Below, piece by piece: positions 25,799-62,147 of a DNA stretch of 64,000 nt. The stretch comes from a virus. The stretch covers positions 60,504-124,503 of IMG/VR virus record IMGVR_UViG_2716884766_000001; one strand, 5' to 3'. The position numbers and the translations under genes were made by a program. Under the pieces are notes generated by a model. The model saw only the letters and a program-made list of their open reading frames with translations, did not search any database and had not been told where the DNA came from. Numbering within the stretch: the first letter of the stretch is position 1; every line of letters begins with the position of its first letter.

Positions 25799-27339
25799 AC
25801 TACATCATGTGGGGTTTGACCACCGTCTACTGCTGTTATGTTGGCAAGAAGATACTTACTGACTTCTAGTTCAGTGGGTGCGACTGCTGCCTTCATGTCC
25901 ATAGTTATACCATTACCCATAGCCATTTTTGATGTCAGTGCCTTTACCTTAGATGTAAACTCATCTTCTTGGTTCTGATCCATAGTATCAGGGACTACGA
26001 GAGTATTCAGCTCTGCCATTGATACTTCATTTAACTCAATAACTTGATTGGTCAAACTGTTGATGTCTTGATCATTTGTCTGAGCACCAATATCAGCCTT
26101 AAATACTCCACCTAAAATCTGGTTTAGTATACTAGCACCCTTATTGATTATTTTACCAGCTGTTGTACTCTTGAATATGCTCTTAGCAGACTCAGCTATA
26201 TTTGTGATAGCAGTTTTAGTCTGATCATAATGAGTATTTGCTGAAGCATATATCTTATCTGGAGGTGAACCATCTAGAGAAGGTCCTCCAGTTCCATTTA
26301 ACATCTCAATCAATCTATCATTCTGCATTCTACGGTTTTGTATTCCCGTAACAGCAGCACCCATAGGAGTGTCTCCAGATACTTTATGATCCTTGTCCTT
26401 AGCAAGTCCCATTAAGTTTGTGATAGTAGAGAAGAATCCACCACCAGCTATGAGTTGTTCTTTCTTACTCTCAACGTTCTTGGTAGACTCACTTGACTCA
26501 CTACCCATGTCAGGTTTCGGTAAGTCGAATGCGTCAGTAATATTGCTTATCTGTGACTTTGCTGCCATAAACTCTGGTGAGTCAGGCATATTCAAAGCAC
26601 TTAATAATCCACCTAGACCAGCTGCCACTGCTTTCAATGGTAATCCCATAGCAGCTGCTAGAGCAGTCTTATACTTATCAAGTCCAAGATCTCCCGCAAA
26701 TTCAGAAGCGACGTTAGAATCACCATCAAGTCCTAAATCCTCAAGTGGCGTGATACCACCTGATTTTTTCTGCTTTTGAGGTTGCAGAGAATTGAACATA
26801 GGACTAGCAGTAGCACCTGGAACATATCCACCTTTTGCTAGTTTAGTATCAGGTGTCTGACTAGGAGTGGTAGTTAGATCCTTACCAGTATTGCTAGGAG
26901 GTTGTATTTTAGTTTCACCATCCTTACCTGGCGGACCAGGTTGACCATCGACTCCATCTGTACCATCTTCTCCATCTCTACCCTCTACAATTTCTTCTTC
27001 ATCCTCTTCATCCATGCCATCATCAAGATCAATCGGTGCATCGAGATCCATTATTGGCAATGATGCAGGATTGATGAAGTTAGCAAACTTCCTCATCGTG
27101 GTCTGAGCTTTGAGTATCTCATAACCATTAGCTAAATCTTGTTTTATTCCACCTTTTCTAGAATCATCTCTATTATCTGCCTCTATCATTGACTGAATAT
27201 TTTCTGCCAATAGGAAGTCCTTATACTTGTCCTCCTTCATCATAGTGTGAAGCATCGCATTGCGATCTTCAAAGAGATTGGTCAGATCACTCAGTATTAC
27301 ATGTACATCTTCTAAAGTGGGAAACTCTTTACTATCCAT
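25795..27339 (-). CDS. tail/baseplate hub-associated protein with short collagen-like GXY repeat
   Basis: GRDGEDGTDGVDGQPGPPGKDGE; LAKGG motif; lies in the tail operon. Confidence 0.55.
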   Translation of the reverse strand: MDSKEFPTLEDVHVILSDLTNLFEDRNAMLHTMMKEDKYKDFLLAENIQSMIEADNRDDSRKGGIKQDLANGYEILKAQTTMRKFANFINPASLPIMDLDAPIDLDDGMDEEDEEEIVEGRDGEDGTDGVDGQPGPPGKDGETKIQPPSNTGKDLTTTPSQTPDTKLAKGGYVPGATASPMFNSLQPQKQKKSGGITPLEDLGLDGDSNVASEFAGDLGLDKYKTALAAAMGLPLKAVAAGLGGLLSALNMPDSPEFMAAKSQISNITDAFDLPKPDMGSESSESTKNVESKKEQLIAGGGFFSTITNLMGLAKDKDHKVSGDTPMGAAVTGIQNRRMQNDRLIEMLNGTGGPSLDGSPPDKIYASANTHYDQTKTAITNIAESAKSIFKSTTAGKIINKGASILNQILGGVFKADIGAQTNDQDINSLTNQVIELNEVSMAELNTLVVPDTMDQNQEDEFTSKVKALTSKMAMGNGITMDMKAAVAPTELEVSKYLLANITAVDGGQTPHDVV

Positions 27340-28247
27340 TATAACGCACCATATTTACCTGAGAATGGACTAACACCCAATACCACCTTTCTCTCTACCT
27401 TCTTCTCTATGACTCTATTAACAGGGAAGGGGACGGGATTATAATATGGGAGTGGAACGAACATTAATTGTGGTTTTGTGACAGCAACAGTTGAGTTTTC
27501 ATTAGGTATCAGTCCTGATGCCTTAGCAGGAGAGAAAGAAGCACCTCCCATTGCTCCGTTACTACTTGGCCACTTAACTGTATTAGTTAATGGATAACCG
27601 TAACTGGGACCTCCTGTACCCTCCTCTGATGGAGGTTCAAAGTTACCTAACTTTATTAGAGGTGCGAATGGAAGTGGATCTCCTGCTCCACCATATCTAG
27701 TTGAGTCTTTCTTATCATCGTATTCAAAGTGCAAATGAGGACCTGTAGAATTACCTGCACCAGGATCTCCCTTAGCACCACCAGTCTTTGCGAGAACCTC
27801 TCCCGCTAAAAATTCCCCAGATTTTTTTACGAAGGAACTTAAATGAGCAATACGCATTTGTATTCCAGTATTAGGTAGCCATACGTCCATCATGTTACCA
27901 TAACCACCATATCTTCCTGCTGCCAATATCTCACCACCTTCAGAAAAACCTACGGGTGTACCTGTGGGAGTAGCAACGTCCACACCACCATGAGGTCTTG
28001 TTCTATTCTCTGTTGAACCATAGTAATCAGTGATGTTAAAATTAGATACCATTGTTTTATCACCCTGTATGGTTGTGGTAGCAGTATCAGCAGTGTTAAC
28101 AGCAGAGCTAGCAATTTGTGTAACCATGTCTGGTTGAGCCATCACTGGTCTCTTCAATATATTCATAATCAATCCAGCTATAGGATTAGCAGCTGTAAAT
28201 GCTCTCCTTGCTGTGCCAATCAGTTTATTTGTAATCTTTTTTACCAT
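27339..28247 (-). CDS. M23 family peptidoglycan peptidase (virion-associated)
   Basis: HGGVD, GYGN, AHL, GNSTGPHLHFE. Confidence 0.85.
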   Translation of the reverse strand: MVKKITNKLIGTARRAFTAANPIAGLIMNILKRPVMAQPDMVTQIASSAVNTADTATTTIQGDKTMVSNFNITDYYGSTENRTRPHGGVDVATPTGTPVGFSEGGEILAAGRYGGYGNMMDVWLPNTGIQMRIAHLSSFVKKSGEFLAGEVLAKTGGAKGDPGAGNSTGPHLHFEYDDKKDSTRYGGAGDPLPFAPLIKLGNFEPPSEEGTGGPSYGYPLTNTVKWPSSNGAMGGASFSPAKASGLIPNENSTVAVTKPQLMFVPLPYYNPVPFPVNRVIEKKVERKVVLGVSPFSGKYGAL

Positions 28248-29583
28248 TGAAAATCTTTGGAATCACACCGCCAGGAAATAGTCCACCTAACTTATTTGCT
28301 TCTGATAATACTTTTTGTGTGTCTGAACTAGGAGTTGGTAGTGTAGTAAGGAATCCTTTAGTGATGCCAAGCATCATAGCACCTACTTCCTTGAATAGAC
28401 TAGACATTACCTTACCCATCTTAGAGTGAGGTATAACCAGTTCTCCTTCACCACCTTCACCGATTAACGCTTTAGTAGGACGTGTGACTTGTCCACCTTC
28501 TGAGAAAGGGAGTACTCCCTTCTGACTCTTGCCACTATAAGTGCCAGTATTTTCATCAAATGCTGCGTATGGATCTTGTCCACTAAGAACTTGAACAAGT
28601 TCAAATATTGTCAATCCCCATCCCGCAATCTGTGAGACAACTTGAGCGATAGCTGGAACAGCAGCACCTACACCAGTGACAGATGCAGGAGCAGTTCCTA
28701 GAGTTGTTGCGTCAGCACCCATGTCTAGAGCAGCAAGAGCAGTGCCGAGCCATCCTTTCCAACCACCTATTTTCTGATAACGAACCATATCATTAGCTGA
28801 CAGTGCCATACTTGCTACTGGAATTGCTCGTCCAGAACCTTTCGCCATAACTTTGGAAAGGTTCTTGAACATCTTAGAGTTCTTTAGAGTTTTAACTACT
28901 GACTTCGCATTATCAACCATCATTGGTGCTTTCTTCCACAAGTCTTTTATCCTCTTGATGCCACCGTCCATCATGGCACCGCTGACATTTTTGACTCTAG
29001 TAGCACCTCCAACTATTTTCTTCTTCAAGAAACTTCCTGCACTGGTTAATTTCTTACCCGCATAGTTGATGCCCTGCATCCCTTTTTTTGCTATCCACTT
29101 TCCACCTTGTTTTACTTTATTTCCAGCTGCTATACCTTTATCTTTTATCTTATTTCCAATTCTTGCTATATTTCTAGGATTAAGAAACTTAAGCGGACCT
29201 CTATATACTGCTTTCTTTCCTAAAGCAGGTGCACCACCAAGTCTTAATGCTCTCGCTCTTATACCACGAGCAAATCTACCTATCTTACTGCCCTTACCGA
29301 AACTTTTAAACCTAAGTCTCTTCTTTTTCTTAAGGAATCTTCTATTTCTGGGTATACCAAAACCACCACCATCACCACCGTCTGCGTCTCTATCCCTCTT
29401 TCTTCCACCAACTACAACTCTTTGCTGTAGCAAGTTCGTCATTATGAAGAACTTCTTTCTATTCCTGAGATAGTCGATGTACTCCATCTCAGTGTCGAGC
29501 ATATTCTTGGCTGTACGAGTCATCTTACCTGATACAGGTAAGAGTTTAACTCCTAACATCTTAGAGATAGCACGACGATTCAT
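28225..29583 (-). CDS. tape-measure-like / baseplate hub protein
   Basis: Basic Gly/Lys/Ala-rich helical region; FSEGGQVTRPTKALIGEGGEGELVIP motif seen in tape measures. Confidence 0.6.
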   Translation of the reverse strand: MNRRAISKMLGVKLLPVSGKMTRTAKNMLDTEMEYIDYLRNRKKFFIMTNLLQQRVVVGGRKRDRDADGGDGGGFGIPRNRRFLKKKKRLRFKSFGKGSKIGRFARGIRARALRLGGAPALGKKAVYRGPLKFLNPRNIARIGNKIKDKGIAAGNKVKQGGKWIAKKGMQGINYAGKKLTSAGSFLKKKIVGGATRVKNVSGAMMDGGIKRIKDLWKKAPMMVDNAKSVVKTLKNSKMFKNLSKVMAKGSGRAIPVASMALSANDMVRYQKIGGWKGWLGTALAALDMGADATTLGTAPASVTGVGAAVPAIAQVVSQIAGWGLTIFELVQVLSGQDPYAAFDENTGTYSGKSQKGVLPFSEGGQVTRPTKALIGEGGEGELVIPHSKMGKVMSSLFKEVGAMMLGITKGFLTTLPTPSSDTQKVLSEANKLGGLFPGGVIPKIFNGKKDYK

Positions 29584-29786
29584 CTTCTCTTACGTGATTG
29601 ACGTTCCTTTTCTATACGTTCCCTTTCATCGTTTAACCACTTAGAAAGCATATTGACGTAAATGTCACGCTCCCAAGGGATCATATTCTCTATGTCACTC
29701 AAGGTATATTTATGGTGTTGAACCAAGGCAAAATTCGTCTGATAGAACCTTGCTAACCCTTCTTGGAATAGGGCTATCCGAAAAAA
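29580..29786 (-). CDS. gp51: gp51-like baseplate hub assembly chaperone; no AUG ahead of the conserved core; probable -1 frameshift extension of gp26
   Basis: Manual translation FYQTNFALVQHHKYTLSDIENMIPWERDIYVNML; frame open from the T TTT TTC heptamer. Confidence 0.75.
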   Translation of the reverse strand, partial: FFRIALFQEGLARFYQTNFALVQHHKYTLSDIENMIPWERDIYVNMLSKWLNDERERIEKERQSRKRR

Positions 29787-30472
29787 TTGACTAATCCTTC
29801 GATGACACTAGAAGTTTTGACACCTGTGTTAGGATTAGTAACTGTAAGCTCATGGCGAAGAGTAGGCATAGTATCAAAGAACTTTTGGATACTTTCAAAC
29901 TGATCAGTAGTAAGTTGCTCAAGCCAGTCTTGAGCCTCTTTAGGTGTGAACGATCCACAATCTTCTTCTCCTTGGTAAACTCTGTCGATGCATGTAGATA
30001 CCAATTCATATGGATCTACCTCTTCCTCAGTGAAATTAATCTTTGTAAAGTATTCTAGGTTAGGATACTTCATCACCACTGTCACACTCTCGTTAACTTT
30101 GATTGTATTGTTATGTCCTTCTGGGAAGTTAACCTTAATCTGATCAACGGGAATAGTCACGGGGACTTTCGTCTTTGGATCATCTTCACATGGTACTTCT
30201 ATTTCAATGGTTTCTTGAATAGACCTACCACGTAGTTGTAAAAAGATATACTCAACGTCAAAGATAGACAAGTCATCCATCTTAAATCTAGTATTGATAC
30301 AACTCTTAAATATAGTCTTTATTGCTTCTAGTATCTGTGAGGTATTGTTTTCCTCTAATGCTAGGATCAGAACCTTCTGTTCTTTAACTAAAAAGGGGCG
30401 ATATTTTAGTTTCTTTTTGGTTGATGGTACTACCAACTCATACGTTGGCGTAACAAGTTCAGGTAATGGCAT
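29774..30472 (-). CDS. gp26: baseplate hub assembly chaperone gp26
   Basis: MPLP..TPTYEL..PS..K.KYRPFLVKEQK.L...DVEYIFLQLR..S...FFDTMP...IEGL.NFF. Confidence 0.85.
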   Translation of the reverse strand: MPLPELVTPTYELVVPSTKKKLKYRPFLVKEQKVLILALEENNTSQILEAIKTIFKSCINTRFKMDDLSIFDVEYIFLQLRGRSIQETIEIEVPCEDDPKTKVPVTIPVDQIKVNFPEGHNNTIKVNESVTVVMKYPNLEYFTKINFTEEEVDPYELVSTCIDRVYQGEEDCGSFTPKEAQDWLEQLTTDQFESIQKFFDTMPTLRHELTVTNPNTGVKTSSVIEGLVNFFG

Positions 30473-30499: not shown

Positions 30500-31192
30500 T
30501 CAAGCTTCTACAGAGATACTTTTTGAGCCAGCATCTAGTAATTCAGAGTACTCATAGTACATACCTACGCTTAGTTTAACAACTCCTGATCCACCAGAAC
30601 TATATGGTATAGATGAAACCATATATGGATAAGAGTTAATTAGTTTTACTGTCCACACATGGTACTGCTCGTTTGAATTATTTGTTGTTACTGCCCCTCC
30701 TGCTTGTGGATCATACTTTTCAAACTTCTTGATTATAGTATCACATACGTATGACTTATAGTAGTGCTGTACATATGCTCTGTCATATACTCTACCTTGA
30801 GCAACAAAGTCTATGTTAGCAGGATTACCTGTTATAAAATCTTGCCATCCTCTGAAAAATTTATATGCTTCTGACTGAATATCAAGTATAAACGACATAT
30901 CCATCTCATTGAACACCTTTGCCATAGCTGGTTTCATGTTGATACCTTTATGTATTCCCTTGACATCCTGAGACACCATTGATACACCTGGTATCTGGAT
31001 CTCGTTTGCCATATCAACCATCAACTTATTAAAGGAGTTGTTTTTGACTCCATATGATTCTAACCACTTAGCTAATTCGCCATTGACTCCCGCAGGATCA
31101 ATACCGAACTGCAGATCATATTGGTTAGTAGAGGACGGACCTCCACTGAACTTTAGATCAGTTAAAAATTTTGTAACGCTCTTCAGTGCCAT
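30500..31192 (-). CDS. tail-tube initiator-like protein (gp54/gp19 fold)
   Basis: IQIPG, FFRGWQD, VKLINSYP, VKLSVGMYYE; position in the baseplate cluster. Confidence 0.6.
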   Translation of the reverse strand: MALKSVTKFLTDLKFSGGPSSTNQYDLQFGIDPAGVNGELAKWLESYGVKNNSFNKLMVDMANEIQIPGVSMVSQDVKGIHKGINMKPAMAKVFNEMDMSFILDIQSEAYKFFRGWQDFITGNPANIDFVAQGRVYDRAYVQHYYKSYVCDTIIKKFEKYDPQAGGAVTTNNSNEQYHVWTVKLINSYPYMVSSIPYSSGGSGVVKLSVGMYYEYSELLDAGSKSISVEA

Positions 31193-31226
31193 AAATACAC
31201 TACATGGGGTGGTATTTTTATTTATG
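31190..31226. promoter_or_regulatory. pair of crossed late promoters (CATAAATA on each strand)
   Basis: +31190-31197 and -31226-31219; each overlaps the opposite gene's start codon. Confidence 0.55.
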
Positions 31227-31697
31227 TCTCTAAAACAAGGAAAGTTCAAACCCAAGAACTATAAGAAATATAAAGGGGATCCAACTAACGTATTTTACAG
31301 GTCTGGTTGGGAACTTAAGTTCATGAACTGGTGTGATAGTGACAGATCAGTGCTTAGTTGGTCATCGGAAGAGATAATAATTCCATACAAATGTCCTACC
31401 GATAACAGAGTACACAGGTATTTCCCAGACTTCTGGGTTAAGATACAGGAGTCAACAGGAGTTAAACAGTATCTTGTAGAGGTCAAACCTCTAAAACAGA
31501 CACAAGTACCCAAACCTCAGAAACGTCAAACCCAAAGGTATCTAACGGAGGTTATGACCTATGCTAAAAACGATGCAAAGTGGAGGGCAGCTCAGGAATT
31601 CTGCGACGACAGAGGATGGAAGTTCAGACTCATCACAGAACGAGAACTCAGAATTAACTACACTGCTCCTAAACCTAAAAGGAAGCAAGGTAAGTAG
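31224..31697 (+). CDS. gp4: head completion nuclease gp4
   Basis: GKFKPKN.KKYKGDPTN..YRS.WE..FM.WCD...WSSEE...HRYFPDF...EVKP..QT. Confidence 0.9.
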   Translation: MSLKQGKFKPKNYKKYKGDPTNVFYRSGWELKFMNWCDSDRSVLSWSSEEIIIPYKCPTDNRVHRYFPDFWVKIQESTGVKQYLVEVKPLKQTQVPKPQKRQTQRYLTEVMTYAKNDAKWRAAQEFCDDRGWKFRLITERELRINYTAPKPKRKQGK

Positions 31698-59840: not shown

Positions 59841-62147
59841 TTAGATTGAACATGATTCGCACTCTTCTTCATTCGACTCCATAATATCTGTTAGTAAACT
59901 ATTGAGATCAGTGTGTGCTACTTCCGCAATAGGTTCCTCTGCATCTTTCTTAGCATCATACGTGTTCTGATAGTATGATGTCTTCCACCCATACTTGTAG
60001 GTGGTCAACCAGTCTTGTGCCATGACAGAGGTTGGCACTTCATTATCTGGATAGTTCTCAGGATTATAACTCCAGTTGCCTGATATACCTTGGTCAAAGA
60101 ACTTTTGCATGACAGCAATAACTTTGATGTACCCTTCATTACTTGGCATATCCCACAACAATGTGTAGTTACTTTTTAGATATGGAAAACCTGGAACAAC
60201 TTGCTTAAGAGGTCCTTTCTTTGACTTCTTAATGGACACGTAATCTCTTGGTGGTTCGACTCCGTTGGTTGCGTTAGACACAATGGAACTACTTTCTGAT
60301 GGCATCTGTGCGGACAATGTTGAGTGCCTAAGACCGTGGGTCTTGATGTCATTGCGTAAAGTATCCCAATCATAGTTCAATACGTTTGGTACGATGTCGT
60401 CTACGTCCTGCTTGTACGTGTCAATAGGAAGTAGCCCGTCTGAATATTTAGTATGATCAAAGTATTCACATGCCCCCTTCTCTTGTGCTATCTGATTGGA
60501 TGCTTTGAGTAGGTAGTATTGGAATGCTTCAGACAAATCATGTACTAATTTCCATGCTTCTGGGTCATCATACTTAACTTTATTCTTAGCAATATAATGT
60601 GCTAACCCTATGTACCCTACCCCCAGTGATCTACGTGCCAGTGTGCTGCGTCTGGCAGCAGCTACAGGGTACTGTTGATAGTCTATCAGTTCTTCTAGTC
60701 CTCTGACAGATAGGTCACATAGATCTTCTAGTTGATCTAGTTGTGTGATCTTACCTACGTTGATAGCAGACAGTATACACAATGCTATCTCTCCTCCTGC
60801 GTCATCAATGTGATCAATAGGGTCAGTAGGTAGAGTGATCTCCTGACATAGGTTAGACATACTTACCTTGTCTTTGAATGAACTGTGACTATTACAGTGG
60901 TCTATGTTCATCAGATAGATACGACCTGTCTCTGATCTCTCCTTGAGTAGATCAAGGATCAGTTCTTGTGCGTCAATAGTCTTCCTAGGTATGCTTGTGT
61001 CATTCTCATACCTTACATAGAGTTCATCAAAGTATTCTGTACCGAAGGCATCGTATAAACCTGGTACATCATGAGGAGAGAACAGTGAGATCTCTCCTGC
61101 CTCAATGAATCTCTGATAGAATAGTTCACTGAGTTGAATACTGTAGTCAAGCTTCCTTACTCTGTTGTCTTGCGTCCCTTTGTTGTTCTTGAGAACAATG
61201 ATGTCTTCAATTTCTTGATGCCAGATCGGAAAGTGTACAGTGGCTGACCCTCCTCTGATACCGTTTTGCGTACAGCATCTAACAGTTGCCTCGAACTTTT
61301 TAAGGAAGGGGATAACACCTGTGTGTTGTACTTCTCCACCCCTGATTTTACTGTTGATGCCACGGATTCTGCCCGCGTTAATCCCAATACCAGCCCTCTG
61401 TGAGACATATTTGCCAATAGCCATATCACTGCTAAAGATACTATCGAGGGTGTCATCAATATCAACCAGAACACAAGATGCAAATTGACGAATGGGTGTC
61501 CTGACCCCTCCCATGATGGGGGTGGGGATGTTGATTTTGTGTGTGCTGATTGCGTTGTAGTAGCGTCTGACATAATCGAGTCTTGTTTCTATTGGATAGT
61601 TTGCGAAGAGTGTAGCAGCGATCATAATATACATCTGCTGCGGTGATTCATAGTGTTCACCAGTGCTTCTGTCTTGGACTAAATACTTATCAACAACCTG
61701 TCGCAGTCCTGCGTAGGTAAATAAGTAATCTCTTTCATGCTCGACGAAACTGTTAATCCTGTCCCACTCCTCTTCACTATAGCGGTTCACGATAGTTCCA
61801 TCGTATACTCCTTTGTCAATACACCCCTTGACGTGCTCCAAAAGCGGGGGAAGTATCTCTGGGTGTCCATGTACTGCTTTCCGAAGTCCGAATAGCAATA
61901 ACCTAGCAGCAACGTATTGATAGTTAGGATGTTCTTCACTGATAAGATCACTTGCTGATCTAATTAAGATCTCTTGAATATCATTAGATGTAATACCATC
62001 ACAGAACTGTAGTCCTGATTGTATTTCTACCTGTGATGCTGATACTCCTGCGAGTCCTTCTACTGCGAACTCTACCATCTTATGTACCTTTTCAAGATTG
62101 AGTTCCTCTTGGGTTCCATCTCTCTTGAGTACGTTTATGCTGCTCAT
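59841..62147 (-). CDS. nrdA: ribonucleotide reductase class Ia alpha subunit (no intein or intron)
   Basis: ATP cone, PTPIM, SCVL, SNLCQEI, K.SYY, C-terminal CESC. Confidence 0.98.
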   Translation of the reverse strand: MSSINVLKRDGTQEELNLEKVHKMVEFAVEGLAGVSASQVEIQSGLQFCDGITSNDIQEILIRSASDLISEEHPNYQYVAARLLLFGLRKAVHGHPEILPPLLEHVKGCIDKGVYDGTIVNRYSEEEWDRINSFVEHERDYLFTYAGLRQVVDKYLVQDRSTGEHYESPQQMYIMIAATLFANYPIETRLDYVRRYYNAISTHKINIPTPIMGGVRTPIRQFASCVLVDIDDTLDSIFSSDMAIGKYVSQRAGIGINAGRIRGINSKIRGGEVQHTGVIPFLKKFEATVRCCTQNGIRGGSATVHFPIWHQEIEDIIVLKNNKGTQDNRVRKLDYSIQLSELFYQRFIEAGEISLFSPHDVPGLYDAFGTEYFDELYVRYENDTSIPRKTIDAQELILDLLKERSETGRIYLMNIDHCNSHSSFKDKVSMSNLCQEITLPTDPIDHIDDAGGEIALCILSAINVGKITQLDQLEDLCDLSVRGLEELIDYQQYPVAAARRSTLARRSLGVGYIGLAHYIAKNKVKYDDPEAWKLVHDLSEAFQYYLLKASNQIAQEKGACEYFDHTKYSDGLLPIDTYKQDVDDIVPNVLNYDWDTLRNDIKTHGLRHSTLSAQMPSESSSIVSNATNGVEPPRDYVSIKKSKKGPLKQVVPGFPYLKSNYTLLWDMPSNEGYIKVIAVMQKFFDQGISGNWSYNPENYPDNEVPTSVMAQDWLTTYKYGWKTSYYQNTYDAKKDAEEPIAEVAHTDLNSLLTDIMESNEEECESCSI

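Follow-up and report, generated by a model that had tools for sequence, protein, structure and literature searches.

Tail assembly chaperones of lambda and T4

The G and GT proteins of phage lambda and the gp26 and gp51 proteins of phage T4 are the closest described systems for the locus analysed here, which is the gp26 gene of a T4-like cyanophage together with the sequence directly downstream of it. The locus is located in a DNA of 64,000 nucleotides (IMG/VR virus record IMGVR_UViG_2716884766_000001, positions 60,504 to 124,503), and this whole stretch is called the window. A programmed -1 ribosomal frameshift at the heptamer U_UUU_UUC of the gene (29786-29780), by which one gene would encode two proteins, is judged highly likely from the comparison of homologous sequences. 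In lambda, an X_XXY_YYZ heptamer close to the 3' end of the first open reading frame (ORF) gives the two products G and GT a common N-terminus. A heptamer in the corresponding place and phase was found in the window, U_UUU_UUC where lambda has G_GGA_AAG. A conserved -1 frameshift in tail assembly chaperone genes was reportedly described by Xu, Hendrix and Duda in 2004 (Mol Cell 16:11).

Leiman et al. (2010, PMC3004832) list gp26 and gp51 of T4 as chaperones of hub assembly; of gp51 they state that assembly depends on it and that the particle lacks it. In the paper on Pseudomonas phage Adele (PMC12846349), Vladimirov, Gautam and Davidson (Virology 2022) are credited with identifying short and long forms of the tail assembly chaperone (TAC) in T4-like phages, whose TAC-N genes contain poly-T slip sites for a -1 shift. 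The same work is cited in the PRFect paper (PMC10885494) for some T4-like phages in which the frameshift is replaced by two genes, one of them short and the other longer and fused. The finding in the window agrees point for point with the descriptions given in these two citing papers. The literature searches, in which the prior work was reached through the papers citing it, returned no direct report of a gp26-gp51 frameshift. The frameshift is regarded as real, ordinary for T4-like phages and, going by the citing papers, already published since 2022, so that the value of the present analysis lies in the confirmation on a new clade and in a pointer for annotators, not in a discovery. The 2022 work is said to name gp26 and gp51 themselves.

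The gp26 gene and the slippery heptamer of the window

The gp26 gene was found on the minus strand at positions 29774..30472 and encodes the short form, a protein of 232 aa that is a chaperone for baseplate hub assembly and represents the N-terminal unit in the pair of tail assembly chaperones. Residues 9-231 of the protein matched PF12322 T4_baseplate over its full length (profile positions 2-218 of 219, E 3e-63), and phrog_150 (PHROG 150 'baseplate hub') was matched at profile positions 5-232 of 282 with E 4e-73. No model matching gp26 or the -1 extension was found in NCBIfam, and PF12322 was the sole TAC-type family found in Pfam scans of 52 gp26 homologues at E <= 5.

The 3' end of gp26 was found to contain the codons AAT TTT TTC GGA TAG. 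The slippery heptamer T_TTT_TTC (29780..29786, minus strand) is present there in the X_XXY_YYZ phase, followed by the presence of one sense codon and the 0-frame stop TAG (29774..29776, minus strand). The AT-rich window of 64 kb contained 37 TTTTTTM sites against 22 expected, so the heptamer alone is within chance and its significance rests on its conservation among relatives.

From C29780, the -1 frame translates as RIALFQEGLARFYQTNF... and contains 66 codons (29580..29780, minus strand) ending in a stop at 29582-29580, which shares the tetranucleotide ATGA with the start codon of the gene that follows. This extension corresponds to the gp51-like C-terminal end of the long form. It matched phrog_634 (PHROG 634 'baseplate hub assembly catalyst', gp51) with E 2e-25, and the gp51-type C-terminal motif NF..L....YSL..I..M.P.ER was present in it. 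It also matched phrog_150 at positions 236-278 of 282 with E 7.5e-8, directly beyond the part covered by gp26, from which it follows that some members of this family have both parts in one polypeptide. The -1 frame of the window was found to be closed a few codons 5' of the heptamer, followed by the first TTG at codon 18 and the first ATG at codon 32, the latter within the conserved MIPWER core.

Several of these features had been pointed out in a first-pass annotation made from the window alone, which reported the end of gp26 and its in-phase heptamer, a gp51-like -1 frame open to 29580 and a first AUG deep in the conserved core with only internal TTGs before it. The coordinates, letters and phase were all found to match. 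The gp26-gp51 fusion of about 300 aa that it proposed is likewise favoured by the comparative results given below.

A -1 frameshift at the conserved heptamer would very probably make proteins of 232 and 297 residues from the one gene. Most ribosomes would read one more codon past the heptamer and then stop, which gives gp26 of 232 aa. A minority would slip back by one base with tRNA-Phe in both the P and the A site, read CGG AUA GCC... and add 66 residues up to the ATGA overlap at the start of the next gene. The resulting gp26-gp51 fusion would comprise 231 + 66 = 297 aa, with the predicted junction ...GLVNFF|RIALFQEG. The predicted tryptic junction peptide of the fusion is TSSVIEGLVNFFR, followed by IALFQEGLAR, and the short form is predicted to yield TSSVIEGLVNFFG. 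A single PF12322 gene was found in a scan of the whole genome containing the window, so the long form would be obtainable here only by recoding. The ribosomal nature of the slippage, its efficiency and the binding partners of the two proteins are what we infer.

Conservation of the heptamer and the -1 frame among cyanophages

The comparison set contained 80 IMG/VR loci and the isolates P-HM1, S-PM2 and Syn9, with a gp26 identity of 37-94%. Conservation was counted on 82 complete homologous loci and the window (83 in total), and the entropy analysis was performed on 75 unique sequences with L053 left out; the entropies, codon usage and stop codons given in this section refer to these 75 sequences.

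An in-phase TTTTTTC or TTTTTTA was found at the end of gp26 in 83/83 loci. The heptamer was located one sense codon before the stop throughout the complete loci, and L053 alone was found to contain three sense codons between them. The entropy was zero across six heptamer positions, including the wobble base of the codon preceding the T-run, which was an invariant T in GAT, AGT, AAT, GCT or TCT (encoding D, S, N or A), and the A-site codon was limited to TTC or TTA. The 0-frame third positions near the heptamer showed an entropy of 1.0-1.9 bits. The seventh base of the heptamer is used in both frames, being the C of CGN or the A of AGN for a conserved Arg or Ser in the -1 frame. On U_UUU_UUA, the slip would be made by tRNA-Phe and tRNA-Leu.

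The entropy by codon position in the 0 frame was 1.04/0.67/1.56 on the 5' side of the heptamer, and the -1-frame entropy by codon position was 0.65/0.36/1.36 in the first 8 codons on its 3' side, where the third positions of the -1 frame were the most variable from the first codon on. The heptamer is the exact point at which the codon periodicity of the 0 frame gives way to that of the -1 frame. The homologues were found to contain conserved R-I/V-A/G-L-F/S-H/Q-E/D residues from -1 codon 1, and their -1 frame was closed 2-27 codons 5' of the heptamer.

The 0-frame stop was present one codon past the heptamer in 75/75 sequences, as TAG in 69 and TAA in 6. It is held at this place because the third-position A of -1 codon 2 (ATA or GTA) is invariant. 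The conservation suggests that the position of the stop is itself under selection, with a possible role in the efficiency of the frameshift or in the C-terminus of gp26.

The deposited genomes list 'gp51' as a free ORF of 40-57 aa (L001 3220, L002 3220, L003 3271, L084 2822, L085 2768, L087 2714 and L088 2750), which starts at whichever ATG or TTG exists, and the conserved codons 5' of that start are left unannotated. Taken as they stand, such GenBank entries with a separate gp51 and an ATG or TTG start speak for two independent genes, in which gp26 and a small gp51 of 35-60 aa from an internal ATG or TTG are made and no fusion is formed. The homologues often have Met or Leu at -1 codon 18 or 19, which would suit this reading as well. 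The annotated starts of gp51, however, differ between the phages, and the first start codon in the -1 frame was found to range from codon 3 to codon 32 among the homologues, with TTG 18 or ATG 32 in the clade of the window. Codons 1-17 are conserved as protein with variability at the third position, yet no start is present upstream of them and a stop is located just before the heptamer. The only ATG in the clade of the window lies inside the conserved MIPWER core, and in T4 the segment is fused to a gp26-like domain. Two independent genes are therefore considered very improbable.

The first-pass annotation had suggested an alignment of the gp26 3' ends as a check of the frameshift, and in all cyanophage homologues sampled the heptamer and the -1 phase were conserved and no conserved independent start was found. 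The real product behind the annotated 'gp51' is very probably the gp26-gp51 fusion, which would correct a routine annotation error, the tiny 'gp51' ORFs with arbitrary starts in the genomes of cyanophages and other T4-like phages.

Distant phages and the paralogues of T4

An in-phase T-run heptamer followed by the presence of a gp51-like segment in the -1 frame was also found in Vibrio phage KVP40, Aeromonas phage phiAS5, Sinorhizobium phage phiN3 and Methylophilales phage Melnitz. The heptamer was of the T_TTT_TTC or T_TTT_TTA type in KVP40 and phiAS5 and of the T_TTT_TTT type in phiN3 and Melnitz, in which the T-run was T7 and T8, respectively.

The arrangement in these four phages bears on a further explanation, in which a homopolymer error or a recent frameshift mutation has split one long gene, so that the frame change would be an artefact or the mark of a pseudogene. 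In the next gene, the same assembly does contain what looks like an insertion of one base into a homopolymer. Yet 82 independent sequences, from metagenomes and isolates, were found to share this frame arrangement, as were the four distant phage groups, and the 0-frame stop is conserved one codon past the site, which leaves an artefact or pseudogene hardly conceivable. A sequencing error behind the gp26/gp51 frame change was rejected on the same 82 sequences and four groups.

In T4, gp26 (208 aa) and gp51 (249 aa) were found to match PF12322 over the whole gp26-like length with E 9e-64 and 4e-52, respectively, the match of gp51 comprising residues 1-201. The identity between the two proteins was about 20%. 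The T4 gp51 covered positions 13-280 of phrog_150 and also matched phrog_634, and the T4 gp26 contained the same domain without the C-terminal tail. The T4 gp51 was found to end with the same C-terminal segment of about 45 aa as the long form of the window, and the profile of the window extension matched residues 205-245 of T4 gp51 with a probability of 82% and E 1e-5 (hhalign). Since both proteins belong to PF12322 and the tail is present in gp51 only, T4 encodes the short and the long form as two paralogous genes. The T4 gp51, being a gp26-like domain plus the C-terminal segment, is thus the natural contiguous counterpart of the proposed fusion, and as read from the sequences the short and long paralogues of T4 are what a frameshift fusion predicts.

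Both T4 proteins and the gp26 of the window match PF12322 over the full length. T4 differs from the window in that genes 26 and 51 are two divergently transcribed genes without a frameshift, and in that genes 27 and 28 are located between gene 51 and the tape measure gene 29. The first-pass annotation had set T4 apart as a phage with separate gp26 and gp51 genes; the two genes are there, but they are paralogues and not unrelated. With these comparisons the T4 superfamily would join the general rule of the long-tailed phages, by which one locus yields both a short and a long chaperone of the tail, with T4 itself as the derived two-gene case.

The T4 record (L089 3803-4090) was also found to contain gene 26', an internal in-frame product of gene 26 of 95 aa, and T4 may make three related hub chaperone proteins.

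In Salmonella phage SeSz-1 (L086, Ackermannviridae, 2700-2900), gp26 ends with GAG ATT TTC ATT TAA and does not contain an X_XXY_YYZ heptamer. The gp51-like motif ..SYF.M....HGYS..E.S.MPW.. was again found in the -1 frame of SeSz-1, in an unannotated stretch, with GTG-ATG just before the motif. A non-canonical slip on U_UUC or an independent initiation may account for it.

Fold and function of gp26

The AF2 model of gp26 had a pLDDT of 85. In an exhaustive alignment with VIA-align, residues 1-91 of the model matched three small proteins best, 3klu (YqbN) with Z 7.3, 3fgx with Z 7.2 and the HK97 tail assembly chaperone 2ob9 with Z 6.9, followed by the next structure with 4.3. The three structures were aligned over 84-85 residues, and the alignment with 2ob9 comprised 84/104 residues; the predicted fold of this part resembles that of the HK97 chaperone at a middling Z, and the sequence identity to it is 12%. 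YqbN is, as we take it, a member of the XkdN-like chaperone family. Nothing was found at E <= 0.001 in a Foldseek comparison of the gp26 model with the PDB, and a profile search of the PDB sequences with gp26 returned chance-level matches only.

The gene of the window follows a tube-fold gene and precedes a gene that is tape-measure-like by weak family matches, an order resembling the lambda G/GT arrangement. No sequence similarity was found between G/GT and gp26; gp26 contains an additional beta-rich domain and, at 232 aa, is the larger protein, and the extension is only 66 aa. By the homology to T4 gp26/gp51 and by analogy with lambda G/GT, both forms would be assembly chaperones for the tail hub and the tape measure, required in different quantities and missing from the completed virion. 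The tape-measure-like protein would be bound by the N-terminal part that the two forms share, and the extension would recruit a tube-fold protein. The description of gp26 and gp26-gp51 as a G/GT-type chaperone pair is well supported; the first-pass annotation had proposed this equivalence, and the comparative results and the middling fold match of residues 1-91 to 2ob9 are in its favour.

Downstream hairpins and the nature of the probable slippage

A candidate hairpin UAGCCCU-9nt-AGGGUUA was found in the window at positions 29754..29776 of the minus strand, beginning 3 nt past the heptamer. It ranked at the 8th percentile of the local 32-nt windows and is possible as a stimulator but not demonstrated. 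The first-pass annotation had placed a hairpin at 29776-29754; it is present in the sequence, but a stability above that of shuffled sequence was not borne out (z = -0.23).

About 60% of the lineages were found to contain a hairpin 5 nt past the heptamer, with compensatory changes, and in other clades the hairpins at this spacing were much stronger than that of the window. The Prochlorococcus-phage clade contained GCCCUC-6nt-GAGGGC after a 5-nt spacer, which was within the top 1% of the local 32-nt windows. Part of the TTTTTTA group contained an 8-bp stem after a 5-nt spacer, in which GGACUAUC/GAUAGUCU were found to covary with GGGCUCUC/GAGAGCCU. In this stem 73% of the cells were paired, against at most 44% with the partners slid, and ten cells contained double changes, a number that was reached in 0/500 shuffles. 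Three pairing registers were found among the cyanophage clades, at or near the same spot. The slip site may have been fixed while the downstream stimulator turned over repeatedly, and the ratio of the short to the long chaperone may therefore be tuned by lineage, a proposal that we put forward only tentatively. If it is true, the clade of the window would stand at the low-efficiency end of this tuning, its hairpin being weak and an independent start being impossible.

The conserved element is a homopolymer (T6 in the cyanophages, longer in phiN3 and Melnitz), and the invariant T of the preceding codon lengthens the run. These two features would also be expected of transcriptional slippage, in which RNA polymerase adds one U on T6 and some of the mRNAs encode the fusion in one frame, with an identical protein product. 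The run was, however, held at exactly 6 in the 75 unique sequences and did not drift to greater lengths, and the base after it was always C or A, which is what the re-pairing of tandem tRNAs predicts. The hairpins 5 nt downstream are present at the classic spacing of a ribosomal stimulator. Efficient polymerase slippage is established for runs of about 8-9, for which six T are short. Transcriptional slippage is on these grounds considered unlikely. The tandem slippage of tRNAs fits the fixed phase, the seventh base C or A (T in two distant phages) and the fixed run length.

Several results weigh against the proposed ribosomal frameshift and the chaperone assignment. A ribosomal slip and the insertion of a U by the polymerase give the identical protein, so that the two cannot be separated from sequence alone. 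The hairpin of the window (-9.1 kcal/mol) was equalled in folding by 80/200 shuffles, and about 40% of the lineages did not contain a hairpin within 32 nt, which together make the stimulator uncertain. Some lineages contained an ATG 3-9 codons past the heptamer, where a free small gp51 could also arise. The Z of about 7 for the fold (<8) is in the range that VIA-align calls middling, and the gene downstream gave weak matches to the tape measure families.

Neighbouring genes

The gene upstream of gp26 (30500..31255, minus strand) encodes a tail-tube-fold protein of 251 aa, which matched PF23849 Phage_TTP_2 with E 5e-12 and phrog_45 tail tube with E 1e-23. The tube-fold gene was also found to adjoin gp26 in KVP40, phiN3 and phiAS5.

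The gene downstream (27339..29583, minus strand) adjoins the stop of the extension and is tape-measure-like, large and basic, with an M23 peptidase domain (E 2.5e-14). The 452-aa downstream ORF showed no BLASTP similarity to T4 gp29. The tape-measure-like character given to this gene by the first reading of the window thus stands as far as the weak family matches go, but does not extend to a similarity to T4 gp29.

In this assembly the downstream gene is composed of two ORFs, of 452 aa and 302 aa, which overlap by 23 nt and are split at an A6 run (28237-28242). The run reads GGTAAAAAAGAT in the window and GGTAAAAAGAT or GGCAAGAAGAT in relatives up to 99% identical. Seven relatives were found to contain A5 or a non-homopolymer at the split site, and the reading frame was continuous in 18/18 relatives examined, with a single 745-aa ORF in L172. 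As judged from these sequences, the split is probably due to one base wrongly added to the homopolymer in the assembly or to a recent mutation rather than to recoding.

The phage contig (C3, at least 167 kb) was found in a 1.6-Mb assembly of 32 contigs that was scored 95% complete as a cellular genome. A single infected cell or a co-assembled culture may lie behind this assembly, or else an error of binning. The contig of the window was also found to contain the sheath and gp19 tube genes, at about 166-168 kb.

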